Program-made: the position numbers and the translations under genes
Assembly (NCBI GenBank): GCA_028287135.1
Contig: JAQBQE010000008.1
Location: forward strand, 3,155-67,154
Reading direction: 5' to 3'
Source: Myxococcales bacterium
Lineage (GTDB): Bacteria; Myxococcota_A; Polyangia; Haliangiales; Haliangiaceae
Length of the DNA stretch: 64,000 nucleotides
In this document: piece by piece, positions 3,119-63,866 of the stretch
Layout of the letters: every line of letters starts with the position of its first letter
How positions within the stretch are numbered: the stretch's first letter is position 1
The notes under the pieces: generated by a model
What the model saw: the letters and a program-made list of their open reading frames with translations, nothing else
Database searches by the model: none
Told to the model about the DNA's origin: nothing

Positions 3119-5256
3119 TGCCCACGACAGTGTACCGTAGCTGTCCGCTCTGCGAGGCGACGTGCGGCGTCGCGATCGAGATCGAGGGCGACCGCGTCCT
3201 GTCGGTCCGCGGTGACGAGGCCGACCCGTTCAGCAAGGGCTACATCTGCCCCAAGGGCACCGCGCTGGCGGACCTCCATCACGATCCGGACCGGCTGACC
3301 CGGCCCGTCATGCGTGACGGCGACGGATGGAAGGAGCTTGCCTGGGACGATGCGTTCGAGCTCGTCGGCCGGAGGCTCAAGGGCATCCGCGATACCTATG
3401 GCAAGGACTCGATCGCCGTCTATCAGGGCAATCCGAGCGCACATAACCTCGGCCTGCTGACGTACGGCCAGCTGTTGATGCGCACGCTCGGGACGAAGAA
3501 TGCGTACTCGGCGACGTCGCTCGATCAGCTGCCGCACATGCTCGCGGCACTGCAGATGTTCGGCAACCAGCTGCTGATGCCGGTCCCCGACATCGACCGC
3601 TCGGACTTGTTCATCTGCCTCGGCGCCAACCCGCTCGCCTCGAACGGCAGCATCATGACGGCGCCCGACGTGAAGGGGCGGCTCAAGGCGATCCGCGATC
3701 GCGGCGGCAAGGTGATCGTCCTCGATCCGCGTCGCACCGAGACGGCGGAGAAGGCGGATCAGCATCTGTTCATCCGGCCGGCCACCGATGCGGTGCTGCT
3801 GCTCGCGATGATCCACGTGCTGTTCGCCGAGAACCTCGTGAAGCTCGGCAGGATCGGGATGACGGGCGTCGAGGAGCTGCGCACGGCATCGGCGAGCTGG
3901 AGCCCCGAGCGTGCGGCACCGATCACGGGGGTCAGCGCGGACGACACCCGGGCGCTGACGCGTGCGCTCGCGACCACACCGCGCGCGGTGCTCTACGGTC
4001 GGATCGGCGTCTGCGTGCAGGAGTTCGGCGGGCTGGCGGCGTGGCTGTGCTACGCGATCAACGCGCTGACCGGGCACCTCGACGAGCCGGGCGGGCTGAT
4101 GTTCACGACCCCCGCGGTCGATCCTCTGCCGCTCGCCGCGATGCTCGGCTTCGATGGTGGCTTCGCGCGGTGGAAGAGCCGCGTCAGTGGCAAGCCCGAG
4201 TTTGGCGGCGAGTTTCCGATGACGGCGCTCGCCGAGGAGATCGAGACGCCGGGTAACGGCGAGGACAAGGTCCAGATCCGCGCGCTCATCACGAGCGCCG
4301 GCAATCCCGTGCTGTCGGCGCCCGGTGGGCCGCGGCTCGAGAAGGCGTTCGGCACGCTCGACTTCATGGTCTCGATCGATCCCTACATCAACGAGACCAC
4401 GCGGCTCGCGAACGTCATCCTCCCGCCGACCTCGGTGCTCGAGCGTTCGCACTACGACGCGGCGCTCAACGCATTCGCCGTCCGCAACGTCGCCAAGTTC
4501 TCGCCACCGACGTTCGAGCGCTCCGCCGAGACGCGCCACGACTGGGAGATCTGCATGGAGCTGTGGACGCGGATCGGGCTGCCCGCGAAGCTCGGTCCCG
4601 GCTCGCGGCTCGTGCGTGGTCTGCTCGGCAAGCTCGGTCCCGAGGCGATCGTCGATCTCGCGCTGCGCACCGGACCGCACGGCTTCGGCCGCGGCGGGAT
4701 GTCGCTCGCGAAGCTGCGCAAGACGCCGCACGGCGTCGATCTCGGCCCGCTCGAGGCGCGCCTGCCAAAGCGGCTCGCGACCCCCGACAAGAAGGTCCAC
4801 CTCGCGTCGCCGATCTACCTCGCTGATCTCCAGCGGCTCCAGGATCGCTACGAGACCGCGGTCCACCACGATCTCGTGATGATCGGGCGTCGTCACCTGC
4901 GCAGCAACAACTCGTGGATGCACAACAGCGAGCGCCTCGTGAAGGGACCGCCGCGCTGCACGCTGCTGATCCATCCCGACGATGCGGCGTCGCGCAACCT
5001 GACCGACGGTGACGTCGCGAAGGTCTCGACCCGCAAGGGCGCGATCGAGGTCCCCGTCGAGATCAGCGACTCGATGATGCGGGGCGTGGTCAGCGTTCCA
5101 CACGGCTGGGGCCACGGCCTCAAGGGCGTCAAGTTGCGGGTCGCGCAGACCGTGCCCGGCGCGAGCGCCAACGACATCATCGATCCCGACCGGATCGACG
5201 CACTGTCCGGGACCAGTGCGCTGACCGGTCAACCCGTCGAGGTCCGTCGCGCATGA
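3118..5256 (+). CDS. molybdopterin-dependent oxidoreductase (bis-MGD family, cytoplasmic type; substrate unknown)
   Basis: N-terminal 4Fe-4S motif CPLCEATCG...CPKG, then typical MopB-family blocks (IAVYQGNP, LFICLGANPLASNGS, VIVLDPRRTETA) and a C-terminal molybdopterin dinucleotide-binding beta-barrel (HPDDAASRNLTDGDVAKVSTRKGAIEV). No twin-arginine signal. Start TTG 3118 or GTG 3130. Confidence 0.9.
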   Translation: MPTTVYRSCPLCEATCGVAIEIEGDRVLSVRGDEADPFSKGYICPKGTALADLHHDPDRLTRPVMRDGDGWKELAWDDAFELVGRRLKGIRDTYGKDSIAVYQGNPSAHNLGLLTYGQLLMRTLGTKNAYSATSLDQLPHMLAALQMFGNQLLMPVPDIDRSDLFICLGANPLASNGSIMTAPDVKGRLKAIRDRGGKVIVLDPRRTETAEKADQHLFIRPATDAVLLLAMIHVLFAENLVKLGRIGMTGVEELRTASASWSPERAAPITGVSADDTRALTRALATTPRAVLYGRIGVCVQEFGGLAAWLCYAINALTGHLDEPGGLMFTTPAVDPLPLAAMLGFDGGFARWKSRVSGKPEFGGEFPMTALAEEIETPGNGEDKVQIRALITSAGNPVLSAPGGPRLEKAFGTLDFMVSIDPYINETTRLANVILPPTSVLERSHYDAALNAFAVRNVAKFSPPTFERSAETRHDWEICMELWTRIGLPAKLGPGSRLVRGLLGKLGPEAIVDLALRTGPHGFGRGGMSLAKLRKTPHGVDLGPLEARLPKRLATPDKKVHLASPIYLADLQRLQDRYETAVHHDLVMIGRRHLRSNNSWMHNSERLVKGPPRCTLLIHPDDAASRNLTDGDVAKVSTRKGAIEVPVEISDSMMRGVVSVPHGWGHGLKGVKLRVAQTVPGASANDIIDPDRIDALSGTSALTGQPVEVRRA

Positions 5257-5696
5257 AGAGCTCGGAGCTATTCGACAAGATCGGCGGCGATGCGCTGCGC
5301 GCGGTGATCACCGACTTCTACGCGCGGATCTTCAGCGACGTCATGATCGGCTTCATGTTCGAGGGCCGCGATCGCGCGCACCTGATCGAGCGTGAATGGG
5401 AGCTCGTCGCCGCGCTGCTCGGGGCCCCCGGCGTGACGTACAAGGGCCGGCCGATGCCTACCGCGCACGCGCAGCACACGATCTTCGGCGGTCACTTCGA
5501 GCGCCGCCTGCAGATCCTGCGCGAGACCCTGCGCGATCACGCCGTCGACCCCGCGGTGCAGCAGGCCTGGATCGACCACTCGCTCTCGCTACGCGCGCAG
5601 ATCACGCGCGACAAGGGCTCGGAGTGCAAGGACACCTCGATGGCCACTCCGAAGCTGTCGGACCCCGACAAGCGCATCAAGCTCGGCCGGAAATAG
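5253..5696 (+). CDS. truncated (2-on-2) haemoglobin family protein
   Basis: LFDKIGGDALRAVITDFYARIFSD...TAHAQHTIFGGHFERRLQILRETL matches the trHb helix pattern. ATG overlaps the upstream TGA (ATGA, 5253-5256). Confidence 0.8.
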   Translation: MKSSELFDKIGGDALRAVITDFYARIFSDVMIGFMFEGRDRAHLIEREWELVAALLGAPGVTYKGRPMPTAHAQHTIFGGHFERRLQILRETLRDHAVDPAVQQAWIDHSLSLRAQITRDKGSECKDTSMATPKLSDPDKRIKLGRK

Positions 5697-57179: not shown

Positions 57180-57271
57180 TCCCGGGAGCAGGTCCGCATG
57201 CGTCCTCACTCCGGCGGACCTCACGCTGCCGGCCGTGACAGGCAACGCTCGGACATGATTTGCTCCCCCTC

Positions 57272-58927
57272 ATGTCGACCTTGACGAGCTCCACTGCCTG
57301 GCTCGCGCTGCTGGCGCACCGGCCCACGATCGAGCAGGTGGCGATCCGCGACCTGATGGCCACCGACCCGCAGCGGTTTCGTTCGATGTCGCGCGAGGTC
57401 TGCGGTCTGTTCGTCGACTACTCGAAGCATCGCGCGACGCGCGAGACGCTTGGGCTGCTGATGGACCTGGCCAGGCAGCAGGATGTCGAAGGCTGGCGCG
57501 ACCGGATGTTCGCCGGCGACAAGGCGCTCAATGGCACCGAGCACCGCGCCGTCCTCCACGTCGCCCTTCGCAATCGAAGCGACCGGCCGATGTTCGTCGA
57601 CGGTGTCGACGTCATGCCTGCAGTGCGCGCGGTGTGGGCGAAGATGCGCGCGTTCACCGAGCGCGTCCGCAATCACGAGTGGCTCGGCCACACCGGCAAG
57701 ACGATCACCGACATCGTAAACATCGGGATCGGGGGCTCGGATCTCGGCCCGGTGATGGTGACCGAGGCACTGCGCCCGTACTGGAAGCACGGGATGAACG
57801 CCCACTTCGTGTCGAACGTCGACGGCACGCACGTCGCGGAGACGCTGAAGCGCGTCGACCCCGAGCGGACGCTGTTCATCGTCGCGAGCAAGACGTTCAC
57901 CACGCAGGAGACGCTGACCAACGCGACGACCGCGCGGACCTGGCTCCTCGATCGGCTGAAGGCGGGCACCGATGCGGTGGCCAAGCACTTCGTCGCCGTG
58001 TCGACCAACGCCAAGGCGGTCGCTGGGTTTGGCATCGACACCGCCAACATGTTCGAGTTCTGGGACTGGGTCGGTGGCCGGTACTCGCTGTGGAGCGCGA
58101 TCGGGCTCTCGATCGCGACGATCATCGGGATGGATAACTTCGAGGAGCTGCTCGCGGGCGCGCACGAGATGGACGAGCACTTCCGCACCGCGCCGCTCGC
58201 CGAGAACGTGCCCGTGATCCTCGCGATGCTCGGCGTCTGGTACAACAACTTCTTCGGCGCCGAGACCCACGCGATCCTGCCGTACGACCAGTACCTGCAC
58301 CGGTTCCCCGCCTACTTCCAGCAAGCCGACATGGAGTCGAACGGCAAGAGCGTGGACCGGCAGAACCAGCGGATCATCGACTACACGACCGGACCCGTGA
58401 TCTGGGGAGAGCCCGGCACCAACGGGCAGCATGCGTTCTATCAGCTGCTCCACCAGGGCACGCGCCTGGTCCCCTGTGACTTCATCGCCCCGGTCGAGAG
58501 CCACAACCCGATCGGCAAGCACCACCAGATCCTGCTCGCCAACTTCTTCGCGCAGACCGAAGCACTGATGGCCGGCAAGACCATCGAGCAGGCCCGCGCC
58601 GAGCTCGTCGCAGCGGGGACTCCGCCCGACGAGATCGACGCACTCGCCCAGCACAAGACGTTCACCGGCAACCGGCCGACGACCTCGATCATGATGCAGA
58701 AGGTCACCCCGAGGACGCTCGGCGCGCTGACCGCGATGTACGAGCACAAGATCTTCGTGCAGGGCATCGTGTGGAACATCTACAGCTTCGATCAGTGGGG
58801 CGTCGAGCTGGGCAAGCAGCTCGCGTCGAAGATCCTCCCGGAGCTCGACGGTCCGGGCGATGTGACGTCGCACGATCCGTCGACCAACGGCCTCATCAAC
58901 TTCTACAAGACGCATCGCCGAGCGTGA
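57272..58927 (+). CDS. pgi: glucose-6-phosphate isomerase
   Basis: Canonical PGI blocks: [74 protein letters not shown]. Start MSTLTSS. Confidence 0.95.
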
Positions 58928-59210: not shown

Positions 59211-59924
59211 CTACCTGTACGTGGCTTGCTTGGAGATGAGGTCGCGCCATGCCGCGCTGGCTAGTAGCCGGGATGGATCGATGGACTCGAGCGCCACGCG
59301 CGCTGTCATGGCGTGCTCCCCGTCGACGCGCCAGCGAGGCGATGCTCGTGTGCTGCTGCGGTCCGCAGGCGCGCATTCCATCCGCGGCACCGTTCTCCAC
59401 CAGTTGACGAGCATCGTGACACGCGGCCATCGGCCCGGTCGTGCCGGCAACACGCCGTGAAGGAGCGGGCCCGGGAACATGGCAAACCGACCAGGCCGCG
59501 GGTGCACCGCGATCCCCGCCTTGGGTGCCGCTATCCGCGACGGTGTGGCGTCCAGGATGACGGTCGGCCCCCCGGCGTTGCTCAGGTAGAGGATCGTTGC
59601 GAGATCCGGAGACACGATCGAGCTCCGGATGCCTTCGTCGCGGTCGAAGTGGAACGGAAATCCCGTGTCGGTCGTCGTCGCACGGAACCACCATTCAGCG
59701 CCGATGAATGCGTGCCCCCCAGGCACGAACCTTCGCAGGTGCTGGATCACCTGCTCGAACAACAGTCGAGGTGGCGCGTCGAGCGAGTACCAGTGGGTTC
59801 CCCCATCGCTGATCGTGGGTCGCCGCGCCTGAGATTCGATGATCTGGGCCCTGAGCTCACCGATCACGTGCGCCGGGACGGCCCGGTCGATCGCTGATAT
59901 CCGCGATAGCTCGCTCGCGCCCAC
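59211..59924 (-). CDS. 2OG-Fe(II) oxygenase superfamily protein, prolyl-4-hydroxylase-like motif layout
   Basis: HFDRD (HxD), ILYLSNAGGPTVILD, distal His in FPGPLLHGV, basic residue block RVTMLVNWW. Order and spacing as in P4H-type enzymes. Confidence 0.7.
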   Translation of the reverse strand: MGASELSRISAIDRAVPAHVIGELRAQIIESQARRPTISDGGTHWYSLDAPPRLLFEQVIQHLRRFVPGGHAFIGAEWWFRATTTDTGFPFHFDRDEGIRSSIVSPDLATILYLSNAGGPTVILDATPSRIAAPKAGIAVHPRPGRFAMFPGPLLHGVLPARPGRWPRVTMLVNWWRTVPRMECAPADRSSTRASPRWRVDGEHAMTARVALESIDPSRLLASAAWRDLISKQATYR

Positions 59925-60389: not shown

Positions 60390-60676
60390 TGGCACATTCA
60401 ACCTACTTCCATCTTGCGTCAGCGGACTCGTGGTCGGCGCCGGCAACCGTGGACTTCGCCCGGCGAGAACACGTGGCTCACCCTGCAGGGCGGCTGAGCC
60501 CCTCGACGGAGGAGCCGCTTCCAGGCGCACGCGCCAACGACGCCTGATGACCGTTCTGATTCCGCGGAAACAGCGCCGAATCGAGGCGTACCGTTCACGT
60601 TCAGGGGGGCCGGAGCACGTCCGATGACCAGGTCCGCTGATTGTCCACGTCCCGATCTGGTACCTTCGCCGCCCTC

Positions 60677-60823
60677 ATGAGCACACGTAAGTCCACCAAG
60701 CGCACCGCCGCCACGCCGAACCTCGACCCCGCCGCACTCGCCCAGCAGAAGATGTTCGAGCGCCTACGCCGACGCGCCGACCGCGCACTCCTCAAGCGGC
60801 GCCGCCAGAAGTCCGGGCAGTAG
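60677..60823 (+). CDS. small basic hypothetical protein (48 aa)
   Basis: MSTRKSTKRTAATPNLDPAALAQQKMFERLRRRADRALLKRRRQKSGQ*. Weak evidence only (ORF plus codon bias). Confidence 0.3.
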   Translation: MSTRKSTKRTAATPNLDPAALAQQKMFERLRRRADRALLKRRRQKSGQ

Positions 60824-60949
60824 CGGCGAGGGCCAAGCGCATCGGGCGACAGTTCGGCGAACGCTGGGATGCCGCCCGCCTTGGTCCGCTGTACGTCATG
60901 ACGACTCGCTGAAAACGTTTCAGCATCGAGCTCGAGCTGGGAGACAGCG

Positions 60950-61327
60950 TCATCGCCGCGGCTTGGCGGGCACGGCCGGCTCGAGGGACTTGAGTCGCCA
61001 GAACCGCTGCTGCTTCGCGTAGTGCTCGGCGAGCCGGAACAGCAGATCCGGCTTGTCTGGGTCATCGTCCGGCGTCTTGTTCGCGAGCTGACGGAGGATG
61101 ACCTCCTGTTCGCGCCGGAGTGGCTCGGTCTGTGTCTCGATCGCCATCACCTCGTCGGCAGTCACCGCGCGCCCCTGGGTCGTCGTCGGCTGGATCGGCT
61201 TGACGCGGTCCGAGAACGTCACGTCGATCGCGAGCTTCGGTTTGCGGGTGTACCTGGGAGGATCCGCATACGCCGGCGTGGCGAGCAGCATGCCGAGCAG
61301 CACGAGCGATCGGTTCGCGCCGGCCAA
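60950..61327 (-). CDS. secreted protein, short (125 aa), resembles the N-terminal part of TPR-type proteins
   Basis: Signal peptide [21 protein letters not shown]. ...[41 protein letters not shown]. Contains the left copy of the 39-nt direct repeat. Confidence 0.55.
61079..61117. repeat. left copy of perfect 39-nt direct repeat
   Basis: GTTCGCGAGCTGACGGAGGATGACCTCCTGTTCGCGCCG is identical at 63923-63961. The flanks are unrelated. Confidence 0.95.
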
Positions 61328-61467
61328 GCGGTCGTCACGACCCTGTGCCCGCGCGTCACGTTGTTGTCGCGGTTACTGCTGCGAGGCGCGCGGTAGCGTC
61401 GCTTTGTCGTTGGCGGTCGTGCTGCGCGACTGTCACGCACCGCCGTACGTCCGGAGATACAGCCGCC

Positions 61468-62682
61468 ATGTGGACCCGCGCCCTTCCTGCTCTCCTGCTC
61501 GCTCTCCTCGGGTGCTCGAACCACGCCGGTGGTGATGATCAAGGCGGCCTCGAAGGCCCGCCCGGTCCCGAGGGACCGCAAGGACCGCAGGGTCCCGCCG
61601 GCCCGCAGGGTCCTCCCGGTGAGGTCACGGTCCTCGACGGTGGAACGATCCAGGGACCTCCCGGCCCGCAGGGTCCCGCCGGCCCGCAAGGTGCGGTCGG
61701 TCCGGCAGGCGCGCAGGGTCCGATCGGCCCGATGGGTATCGCGGGCGCGGCGGGCGCGACCGGTGCGGCGGGTACCGCGGGCGCCATGGGCCCGATGGGC
61801 ATGGCAGGACCGGCGGGACCGCCCGGACCCACCGGTGCCCAAGGCGTTCCGGGATCGATGGGCCCTGGTGGTGCGGTGACCGGGGAGGCCGCGGCCCAGT
61901 TCGCGGGCTTCACGTCGACGACGTACCCTGGCGTCGCAGGCGGTCGCGAGGTGATGCATGCGCGGTGCGCCGCCGCGTTCACCGGCTCGCACCTCTGTCA
62001 CGTCGCCGAGTATCACCTGGCGAACACGGCGACGATTCCGCCCGCGAGTGGCGCGTGGCTCGACATGAGCGGCGGCATCGACGGTTACAACGGGAACGTC
62101 ACGGTGTCCAACGAGCTCGGCAGTGTCGACCTCGGTCGCTGGACCTCGCAGTCGTACTCCGGCAACTGCAACAACTGGACGGCTGCCGTCGAAGGCAGCA
62201 CCAGCACGTTTGGCGAGACAATCAATCCGACGACGCACACCACGGTGCAGTGCACGATCTCGCACGCGCTCGCCTGCTGCTCGACACCGTACGTCGAGGG
62301 GTTCCGTGGCTTCACCACCGCAACCGTCTCCGGCGTTCATTCCGGAGGCCGCGCCGCGATGCACCAGCTCTGCGGCGCGCAGTTCGCGGGCAGTCACATG
62401 TGCCACATCGCCGAGTACCAGCGCGCGACCCCGACCGTCTCGCCACCGGCCTCCGGTGCGTGGCTCGACATGAGTGGCTATCTGCGATCGTCGGGCAGCG
62501 TGGCGAACGAGATCGCAACCCTGCACGCAGGCCGCTGGGCATCGAAGCTCTACTCGGGAAACTGCAACAACTGGACGGCCGCGATCGAGGGCAGCACCAG
62601 CACGTTTGGCGAGACGATCACGCCCACCGGTCACATGACGCAGCTGTGCACGGGCACCCGCCCGATCGCGTGTTGCGAATAG
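61468..62682 (+). CDS. collagen-like lipoprotein with two C-terminal Cys-rich DUF1554/endostatin-like domains (paralogue A)
   Basis: Lipobox LLALLGC. Gly-X-Y: 9 triplets, a 9-residue break (TVLDGGTIQ), then 25 triplets (nt 61546-61878). Two ~125-aa domains (nt 61900-62280 and 62302-62679), each with F.GFT...GV.GGR..MH..C...F.GSH.CH..EY...GAW.D.SG...NC..WT......C......ACC. Confidence 0.85.
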
Positions 62683-62690
62683 GAGATGCC

Positions 62691-63866
62691 ATGCTCGCCC
62701 GATCTCTGATCGCAACGCTGCTCGCTCTCGCGGCGTGCTCCAACCATGCTGGCGGTGAGGATCAAGGCAGCGTCGAAGGCCCGCCCGGTCCCGAAGGTCC
62801 ACAGGGTCCACAGGGTCCGCAGGGACCGCAAGGCCCGCAAGGCCCTCCCGGCGAGGTCACCGTCCTCGACGGTGGAACGCTCCAGGGACCTCCCGGTCCG
62901 CAAGGTCCACAAGGTCCCGCCGGTGCTGTCGGTCCGCAAGGGCCGCAAGGTCCCCAAGGCGCGACCGGTGCTGCCGGTGCTGCCGGTGTTGCCGGTGCGA
63001 TGGGAATGACGGGCGCGACCGGACCCGCGGGACCGCCCGGTTCGCTGGGTCCGCAGGGTGTGGCGGGTGCGATGGGTCCTGGAGGGATGGTCACCGGCGA
63101 GGCCGCTTCGCAGTTCGCCGGATTCACGACCACCCCGATCAGCGGCGTCGCGGGAGGTCGCGAGGCGATGCACGCGCGCTGCGCCGCGGCGTTCACCGGC
63201 GCGCACCTGTGCCACTTCTCCGAGTACTACCTCTCCAACTCAGCGACGATTCCGCCGAGCGACGGCGCGTGGATCGACTCGAGCGGCGGCATCGAGGCCT
63301 CCGCATCTGACGCATCGCCGATCGGCGGCACCGGCCACATCCGGCTCGGCCGCTATGCCGGTGCCTCGCAGGTCAACTGCGGGAGCTGGACCGGTTCCGG
63401 GACGCTCGGCTACGTCCTCACCATCAGCGGCCAGTCGCAGACGCAGTGCTCGACCACGCACAGGCTCGCGTGCTGCACCACGCCGTTCACCGAGGGCTTT
63501 CGCGGCTTCACCACCGCGACGGTCACCGGCGCTCGGCCGGGGGGTCGCGCCGAGATGAACCAGCTGTGCGGCGCGCAGTTTGCCGGCAGCCACCTCTGCC
63601 ACAAAGCCGAGTACGAGCGCGCGTCGCCGACGGTCACGCCACCCGCGGCGGGCGTGTGGATCGAATCGAGTGCGTACCTCCGCACGCAGGGCGATTCGTC
63701 GCCGGAGAACAACGTCGCCACGGCCGAGATGGGCCGGTACACCGCCGCGACCCAGCTCAACTGCTCGGCGTGGACGCAGTCGGGATCGCTCGGATACAGC
63801 CTGTCGGTGAATGGACTCTCGCAGGGCCCGTGCACGGTGAGCCACGCGCTGGCGTGCTGCGACTAG
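62691..63866 (+). CDS. collagen-like lipoprotein with two C-terminal Cys-rich DUF1554/endostatin-like domains (paralogue B)
   Basis: RBS AGGAG at 62681-62685, 8 nt after the stop of paralogue A. Lipobox LALAAC. 9 + 23 Gly-X-Y triplets with the same TVLDGGTLQ break (nt 62778-63092), then two Cys-rich domains ending ...ACCD. Confidence 0.85.

Follow-up and report, generated by a model that had tools for sequence, protein, structure and literature searches.

What might a bacterial lipoprotein do with a collagen-like stalk and two disulfide-rich heads? The question is raised by two adjacent genes, here called A and B, in a 64,000-nucleotide stretch of the genome of a Myxococcales bacterium (assembly GCA_028287135.1, contig JAQBQE010000008.1). 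This stretch is referred to as the window, and all gene and feature coordinates are given on its numbering. Our analysis favours, with slightly better than even confidence, an arrangement in which A and B are paralogous exported lipoproteins that would form a trimeric, outer-membrane-anchored adhesin or recognition fibre with a collagen stalk and two DUF1554-type heads. The layout of the pair is as follows.

61468–62682, plus strand: gene A, a collagen-like lipoprotein of 404 amino acids (open reading frame and translation; Pfam Collagen; orthologue in locus L001 76–77% identical).
62681–62685, plus strand: AGGAG ribosome-binding site of gene B, read from the sequence and overlapping the TAG stop codon of A.
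62691–63866, plus strand: gene B, a paralogous collagen-like lipoprotein of 391 amino acids (open reading frame and translation; Pfam Collagen; 76% identical orthologue, the second gene of L001).

The gap between the genes measures 8 nt (62683–62690), with 5 nt separating the end of the AGGAG from the ATG of gene B. A preliminary description of this DNA, made from the sequence alone, had proposed two same-strand genes 8 nt apart, the second with its own AGGAG, and the open-reading-frame (ORF) listing and translation confirm this layout. Because the genes lie so close together, they are probably co-transcribed; no sigma-70-like promoter was found, and terminator-like sites near 61385–61402, upstream of A, are consensus matches and no more. 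Proteins A and B share 61% identity. The GC content at third codon positions (GC3) in the plus frame of their domain-coding parts is 0.87–0.90; that of the neighbouring glucose-6-phosphate isomerase gene (pgi) is 0.92 and that of an overlapping minus-strand ORF is 0.65. Homologues have an N-terminus of the form MW(T/I)R..PALLL..(A/G)CSNHAGG that starts at the same methionine, and the ATG at 61468 is therefore favoured over an upstream GTG. The identity between the two proteins, Pfam Collagen matches above the cut-off, the GC3 values and the shared start together indicate that A and B are real genes rather than chance ORFs.

The N-terminal parts of the two proteins comprise a leader, a short tether and an interrupted collagen-like region.

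61468–61515, plus strand: A, signal peptide with lipobox LLG/C and predicted lipidated Cys16 (sequence; same N-terminus in homologues P0002 and P0056).
61516–61545, plus strand: A, tether of the SNHAGG(D/E)DQG type, 10 residues, from anchor to stalk (kept in A, B and near homologues).
61546–61626, plus strand: A, collagen block 1, nine Gly-X-Y triplets, residues 27–53 (translation).
61627–61653, plus strand: A, interruption TVLDGGTIQ, residues 54–62 (translation).
61654–61878, plus strand: A, collagen block 2, 25 Gly-X-Y triplets, residues 63–137 (translation).
62691–62738, plus strand: B, signal peptide with lipobox LAA/C and Cys16 (translation).
62778–62858, plus strand: B, collagen block 1, nine triplets, residues 30–56 (translation).
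62859–62885, plus strand: B, interruption TVLDGGTLQ, residues 57–65 (translation).
62886–63092, plus strand: B, collagen block 2, 23 triplets, residues 66–134 (translation).

Each leader shows a basic residue, a hydrophobic stretch and then a lipobox; both A and B match the pattern [LVI][ASTVI][GAS]C, and a lipobox-like motif lies upstream of the stalk in most related genes. The collagen-like nature of the stalk is recognized by Pfam Collagen (PF01391; gathering cut-off 27.2 bits), which scores 43.2 bits in A and 41.7 bits in B. NCBIfam Scl and Lcl adhesin models match A and B in the stalk only and below threshold (Scl, 58 bits against a cut-off of 325; adhesin_Lcl, 47 bits against a cut-off of 500, with E values of 1e-12 and 8e-11 for the A and B stalks). 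In block 2 of A, proline occupies 35% of the X and Y positions and three residues are charged. Since the nine residues of the break correspond to three triplets, the triplet phase is preserved across it. A V.VLDGG-type break motif is also found in the nearer homologues (L001–L012, L016, L018–L019, L027 and L069) and might help to register or knot the triple helix. Among the more distant members compared (P0238, P0270 and P0276), a motif of the form (A/V)LY(L/V)DGG stands exactly at the junction of collagen region and heads, and P0276 has VLVIDGG at the N-terminal end of its Gly-X-Y region; in some distant members, a short cysteine-containing insert lies between Gly-X-Y blocks (weak Pfam DUF7151 matches). 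The linker from the last triplet to the first strand of head domain 1 is just ~7 residues long (TGEAAAQ), and no α-helical coiled-coil neck is present there in either sequence or model.

The remainder of each protein consists of two head domains.

61879–62280, plus strand: A, head domain 1, residues 138–271, six cysteines, DUF1554-related (AlphaFold, Foldseek and homology to P0238).
62281–62679, plus strand: A, head domain 2, residues 272–404, six cysteines (two-domain model; 56.5% identical to domain 1).
63093–63476, plus strand: B, head domain 1, residues 135–262 (translation and alignment).
63477–63863, plus strand: B, head domain 2, residues 263–391 (translation and alignment).

The plan proposed in the preliminary description, namely a lipobox, an SNHAGG(D/E)DQG spacer, nine triplets, a TVLDGGT(I/L)Q break, 23–25 further triplets and two six-cysteine domains, thus holds in both A and B; the domain size of ~125 residues given there does not, the measured value being ~130 (128–134). 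In A, the head cysteines are residues 167, 177, 234, 262, 270 and 271 of domain 1 and 302, 312, 366, 394, 402 and 403 of domain 2. Twelve domain cysteines per chain imply an oxidizing compartment.

To which family do these heads belong? Scans of A and B against Pfam and NCBIfam left them without a family name. DUF1554 (Pfam PF07588, the Len motif; profile length 136, gathering cut-off 27.5 bits) does not match either protein even at E ≤ 10; of the families for which a Pfam scan had been proposed, Collagen was found, and DUF1554, Endostatin and Lectin_C were not. Relatives supply the connection. Faint DUF1554 matches occur in five of 73 near homologues (best E value 0.51). A further 46, more distant members each match a single-domain profile of the heads built from 66 sequences (A2) at E < 1e-24, and 18 of these 46 match DUF1554 at E ≤ 0.01. 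One family member, P0238, reaches 31.0 bits, above the cut-off, and the two domains of A align with it in BLASTP at an E value of 7e-25 with the cysteines in register. Alignment of profile A2 with that of the other subfamily (A4) by hhalign gave a probability of 99.8% and an E value of 2.3e-29; relative to the short DUF1554-like form, the subfamily of A and B has a loop insertion of ~21 residues. Another relative, P0276, already carries both Collagen and DUF1554 in precomputed Pfam annotation. The DUF1554 matches are all confined to positions 2–34 of the profile, corresponding to the opening F.T...Y.GNLGG..GA(D/N)..C, and a search with P0238 for a collagen-free DUF1554 protein, such as those of Leptospira, returned only its own collagen-linked subfamily. 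The resemblance to a DUF1554 family consensus noted in the preliminary description is thus a real homology, traced at the sequence level through intermediates such as P0238.

Structural models point to the fold. The AlphaFold2 model of the domain pair of A has a mean predicted local distance difference test score (pLDDT) of 96.0 and a predicted template-modelling score (pTM) of 0.93, values that imply a fixed packing of one head against the other; head domain 1 modelled singly has a pLDDT of 93.1. In Foldseek searches of the PDB, the best 50 matches of both models were all C-type-lectin-like domains, with probabilities of up to 0.93, and included mannose receptor and DEC-205 tandem domains, snake-venom lectins, natural killer cell receptors, ovocleidin and Epstein–Barr virus gp42. 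The best match of the domain pair was to the tandem domains of the mannose receptor (E value 5.8e-4). Lectin-fold heads had been suggested from the sequence, and the uniformity of these matches agrees with that suggestion; the similarity is modest (single-domain E values of 0.012 or worse, TM scores of 0.35–0.45). The heads are likely, on the basis of these models, to have a C-type-lectin-like fold. A Foldseek search of a viral structure library ranked C-type lectins best and gave weak C-type-lectin and DUF1566 matches only, with no phage-fibre relative among them. Sequence searches of the PDB were uninformative: a single-sequence search gave a chance match (E value 0.49) and searches with profiles A2 and A4 gave none. 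Lectin_C (PF00059) did not match A, B or the scanned relatives, and DUF1566 (PF07603) did not match in any Pfam scan of A, B and relatives.

The parallel with endostatin drawn in the preliminary description was not reproduced. Pfam Endostatin (PF06482) has no match in A, B or 119 relatives, no endostatin structure (e.g. 1KOE or 1BNL) is among the best 50 Foldseek PDB matches of either model, and hhalign of A2 against human endostatin gave an E value of 0.45 over 13 columns covering the C..W motif only, a weak test in which the template was a single sequence. At this E value the link is unsupported at the sequence level. What remains of it comes from the compact C-type-lectin-like fold of endostatin itself and from the literature, where the endostatin structure 1KOE has served as the threading template for Len/DUF1554 domains (PMC2063517, PMC2387172).

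The heads are mosaics of a conserved scaffold and variable loops. The scaffold comprises positions 8–62 of the head domain, with invariant GSH(L/M)CH.AEY and GAW.D motifs, and column entropy rises to ~3 bits at positions 63–85, 88–95 and 102–124. The C-terminal halves compared are as follows.

62134–62280 and 62530–62676, plus strand: C-terminal halves of head domains 1 and 2 of A.
63348–63476 and 63732–63863, plus strand: C-terminal halves of head domains 1 and 2 of B.

Equivalent heads of A and B share 71–76% identity in the N-terminal half and 30–35% in the C-terminal half, whereas domains 1 and 2 within one protein share 42–53% in the N-terminal half and 56–71% in the C-terminal half. The pattern extends to the family: the C-terminal segment of domain 1 has its best domain-2 match within its own protein in 33 of 73 members, against six of 73 for the N-terminal segment. 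Two explanations were tried and rejected. A diversity-generating retroelement is not indicated, as the window holds no further copy of the variable segments and the mismatches between domains 1 and 2 are not adenine-specific. Recent gene conversion between the domains of A is contradicted by DNA copies that are only 73–76% identical, with 22 of 48 mismatches at third codon positions; the likeness of the C-terminal halves at the protein level is thus old or maintained by selection. Older conversion is a possible cause, as is selection that keeps the two heads alike in specificity, and the co-variation of two heads within one protein poses a minor evolutionary question of its own.

The two genes belong to a broad family. 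A search with the C-terminal 267 residues of A returned more than 200 proteins, unnamed or labelled `collagen-like protein', from Myxococcota metagenome-assembled genomes and soil metagenomes. Profile A2, searched against 1.84 billion cluster representatives, matched 916 at E ≤ 0.001, 229 at E ≤ 1e-10 and 118 at E ≤ 1e-30, and the family is restricted mainly to Myxococcota/Polyangia. We examined 80 genome loci from Kofleriaceae, Haliangiales, Polyangiaceae and other Myxococcota metagenome-assembled genomes; one cultured species, Chondromyces apiculatus DSM 436 (L067), is among them. All 80 contain an intact ORF with a Gly-X-Y run of 8–91 triplets followed by the two-domain unit (L075 has one ORF with four domain matches), and invariant cysteine, tryptophan and glycine positions run through the family. 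The tandem pair of an A-like and a B-like gene is kept in L001–L004, at 73–77% identity in L001–L003 and 64–67% in L004. Longer arrays consist of three copies in C. apiculatus and four or five in L005, and several genomes have further unlinked paralogues. Clustering of the flanking ORFs of the 80 loci revealed no conserved operon partner, only ubiquitous Ser/Thr kinases being recurrent. This lack of a conserved neighbour, together with the tandem and unlinked copies, suggests that the two-headed collagen unit acts alone and expands by duplication.

Some members of the set depart from this picture. In L011, a single gene (4143–5513, P0056) occupies the place of the two in the window, with an A-like N-terminus and heads 92% identical to those of B, which points to deletion or fusion by recombination between tandem paralogues, or to assembly collapse. 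Six loci (L020, L026, L032, L038, L040 and L070, the last with just eight Gly-X-Y triplets) come from bins assigned to `Rickettsiales' or `Bryobacteraceae'; the labels are probably wrong, transfer beyond Myxococcota being another possibility. Database entries P0001, P0004–P0007, P0009 and others start at an internal methionine (MGP...) within or after the Gly-X-Y region, indicating that gene callers often shorten genes of this family and that the full architecture is under-annotated.

How might such a protein work? In the arrangement that we favour, signal peptidase II would cut before Cys16 and the acylated cysteine would anchor the chain in the outer membrane. Three chains would come together along their Gly-X-Y triplets, 34 in A and 32 in B, to make a collagen-type triple helix, predicted to form a rod ~29 nm long at 0.286 nm per residue, in which the conserved nine-residue break, a quarter of the distance from the base, would act as a hinge or knot. 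Each chain ends in two tightly packed heads, presumably stabilized by disulfides, which homology assigns to the DUF1554 (`Len-motif') group within the likely C-type-lectin-like fold, and with two heads per chain a trimer would hold six heads away from the cell. The heads may serve as multivalent binding modules for an extracellular polymer or for the surface of another cell (exopolysaccharide, matrix protein or prey envelope). Specificity would depend on hypervariable loops in the C-terminal half of each head, which differ between A and B and match between the two heads of one protein, and A and B would represent two specificities of one device.

Several observations weigh against this proposal. 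There is no neck or other recognizable trimerization domain between stalk and heads, and a stalk with only two or three charged residues, and with at most a candidate prolyl hydroxylase, may not form a stable triple helix. The similarity to solved lectin domains is weak, with root-mean-square deviations of 7–10 Å at the TM scores given above. Neither A nor B contains the Ca2+- and sugar-binding motifs typical of true C-type lectins (EPN or QPD, together with WND), and the heads are neutral to acidic (isoelectric points of 5.3–7.0), lacking the basic patches used by Lcl and endostatin for glycosaminoglycans; a sulfated glycan bound by charge, or a sugar bound via Ca2+, is thus an unlikely ligand. 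No conserved neighbour gene in the 80 loci offers a functional hint, and the sequence does not distinguish exposure at the surface from a position facing the periplasm.

Characterized proteins with which A and B can be compared bear on this choice. The preliminary description knew of no characterized bacterial example, but parallels exist in the Lcl protein of Legionella (PMC11162425) and the Len proteins of Leptospira (PMC2063517, PMC2387172). LenA–F are DUF1554 `endostatin-like' outer-membrane lipoproteins, of which LenC–F carry two motifs each (PMC2063517, PMC2387172). They are adhesins for laminin, fibronectin and factor H (PMC2063517), the link to Pfam being made in PMC2387172, and their genes form a multigene set that diversifies by recombination and intragenic duplication (PMC2063517). 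A and B resemble them in being predicted lipoproteins with a domain superfamily common to both, as traced through P0238, in having two motif copies as in LenC–F and in belonging to a multigene family, with mosaic heads that may be compared with the products of Len recombination and duplication. They differ in their collagen-like stalk; the Len proteins are not described with one, and their two motifs are joined by proline-rich linkers (PMC2063517). A and B also fall below the Pfam DUF1554 threshold, have the ~21-residue loop insertion, and come from a family of soil and sediment Myxococcota rather than from an animal pathogen with host ligands.

Lcl of Legionella pneumophila is a lollipop-shaped trimer in which a collagen-like stalk bears a C-type-lectin-like head that binds glycosaminoglycans; it leaves the cell by type II secretion and then attaches to it again by means of an N-terminal amphipathic helix (PMC11162425). 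Both it and the present proteins belong to Gram-negative bacteria and combine a cell anchor, a collagen-like stalk and a C-terminal C-type-lectin-like head, which for A and B is predicted here from sequence and models, and neither has the classical Ca2+/sugar motifs. The head of Lcl, however, is a single DUF1566 domain without disulfides that is itself the trimerization unit, whereas each of A and B carries a pair of DUF1554-type heads, with six cysteines per head, and a lipobox.

Other bacterial collagen-like proteins are less close. Streptococcus Scl1 and Scl2 and Bacillus BclA share with A and B a hydroxyproline-free Gly-X-Y stalk, consistent with the sub-threshold matches of the Scl models. 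In contrast, the V domain of Scl is N-terminal, the head of BclA is C1q/TNF-like, and anchoring is by LPXTG or to the exosporium rather than by a lipobox.

Animal proteins offer two further comparisons. Collectins (MBL, SP-A and SP-D) are multivalent trimers in which a collagen stalk presents heads of C-type-lectin fold, as A and B would be, and in some collectins interruptions of the collagen sequence form kinks. Unlike collectins, A and B lack a coiled-coil neck, the EPN/QPD and WND sites and a Lectin_C match, and the TM scores are just 0.35–0.45. In the multiplexin collagens XV and XVIII, as predicted for A and B, a collagen helix is followed by compact C-terminal domains of the C-type-lectin-like superfamily, which in multiplexins means the endostatin domain of the NC1 region; judged from the secondary structure of the model and general features of the fold, four of the six cysteines in a head would be placed at the sites expected for the two nested disulfides of endostatin and C-type-lectin-like domains (helix 1 with the last strand; strand 3 with the loop that precedes the last strand). 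A and B differ from multiplexins in having no separate trimerization domain or hinge, two heads instead of one, and a lipid anchor. It is conceivable, as a long shot, that the pairing of collagen with an endostatin-type (DUF1554) domain has a single origin shared by Myxococcota and multiplexins, through deep ancestry or transfer between bacteria and early Metazoa, and that the matched loops form a programmable recognition surface with which these social, predatory bacteria would distinguish matrix, kin or prey. For now the parallel may be regarded as formal, a common origin being unsupported.

An architecture of lipobox, collagen-like stalk and two heads is common in Myxococcota, where it is databased as `collagen-like protein', and full-text literature searches returned no paper on proteins that combine a lipobox, a collagen stalk with a break and a pair of DUF1554-type heads rich in disulfides. 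Each component and the overall design have precedents, and it is their combination that is uncharacterized.

Among the alternatives to a recognition fibre, the one that survives best is a structural fibre of the matrix or spore surface (a hairy nap, or a matrix or fruiting-body wall, cf. Bacillus BclA) with a mechanical or protective role, in which the heads would mainly nucleate and cap the triple helix. The Bacillus exosporium has layers of collagen-like stalks with globular C-terminal caps, so such capped layers have a precedent. The family is also largely confined to fruiting, matrix-rich Myxococcota, C. apiculatus included, and a domain pair as tight as that modelled for A (pTM 0.93) could serve as a folding nucleus. 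We nevertheless consider this explanation unlikely: the lipid anchor speaks for a cell-bound protein rather than a self-assembling layer, hypervariability focused in the head loops would be unexpected in a purely structural cap, and the heads are of DUF1554 type and not C1q/TNF-like as in BclA.

A periplasmic role is less probable still. A and B could be envelope spacers or tethers held, like Braun's lipoprotein, in the inner leaflet of the outer membrane, with the rod spanning the periplasm and the heads binding peptidoglycan or an inner-membrane partner. The lipobox followed by serine at position +2, the rod-like trimer motif and the glycan-binding type of the heads would all suit such a tether, as would the absence of a secretion-system gene or other conserved neighbour, and the leaflet or face of the membrane cannot be read from the sequence alone. 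However, the variable head loops, the divergence of A and B within them, the paralogues and the arrays of up to five copies fit changing external ligands better than an invariant envelope polymer, and Len and Lcl, the closest characterized relatives, act as adhesins at the cell surface (PMC2063517, PMC11162425). The predicted rod, with its heads, would also be long for the periplasm.

We are slightly more doubtful again about co-assembly of A and B into heterotrimers in the manner of C1q or the α chains of collagen I, which would make the tandem pair one device. Conservation of the A-like and B-like pair with a near-zero gap in L001–L004, the 8 nt that separate the genes here and the common block layout and break motif of the two proteins are in its favour. 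The breaks are out of step, however: counted from Gly30, eight triplets precede the break in A and nine in B, with 25 and 23 following it. Many genomes, moreover, have single copies at other loci, and L011 has one hybrid gene only. Finally, the notion that A and B are non-functional, as a chance glycine-rich frame or decaying pseudogenes, draws on the frequency of long spurious ORFs on both strands of this region of 66–72% GC and is effectively refuted by the high GC3 in the A/B frame only, the 916 cluster representatives matching the domain profile, the 80 intact loci with their invariant residues and pLDDT values of 93–96.

The recognition fibre therefore stays our preferred explanation. An ordinary pgi gene (57260–58927, plus strand; Pfam PGI, E value 5.9e-239) places the pair in a chromosomal housekeeping context rather than in a mobile element. 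An ORF of 237 amino acids at 59214–59924 on the minus strand, 1.5 kb upstream of A, shows weak similarity to 2OG-Fe(II) oxygenases (PF13759, E value 0.009; NF052475, E value 0.013) and no PDB match; on this similarity it is a possible hydroxylase of prolines in the stalks. Conserved synteny of this ORF is seen in the close relative L011 only and not in L001–L005. Upstream of A and divergent from it, an ORF of 125 amino acids (60953–61327, minus strand) has a signal peptide and no family match, and a second ORF in another frame (60604–61065, minus strand) overlaps it; the two may represent a frameshifted or misassembled gene.

The 916 cluster representatives define a large unstudied class of myxobacterial envelope proteins, one that joins modules characterized only separately in pathogens: the collagen-like stalk of Lcl and the DUF1554 adhesin domain of Len. 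For DUF1554, the family supplies a confident structural model that likely places the domain in the C-type-lectin-like fold, and it reveals a branch most of which the Pfam model misses. Should a single origin prove true, the myxobacterial proteins would be prokaryotic counterparts of the multiplexins. If the trimer and the surface location are as proposed here, A and B would form a bacterial analogue of collectins and multiplexins, in which a hydroxyproline-free collagen scaffold carries six variable heads, and they would be candidates for cell–matrix or predator–prey recognition in Myxococcota.

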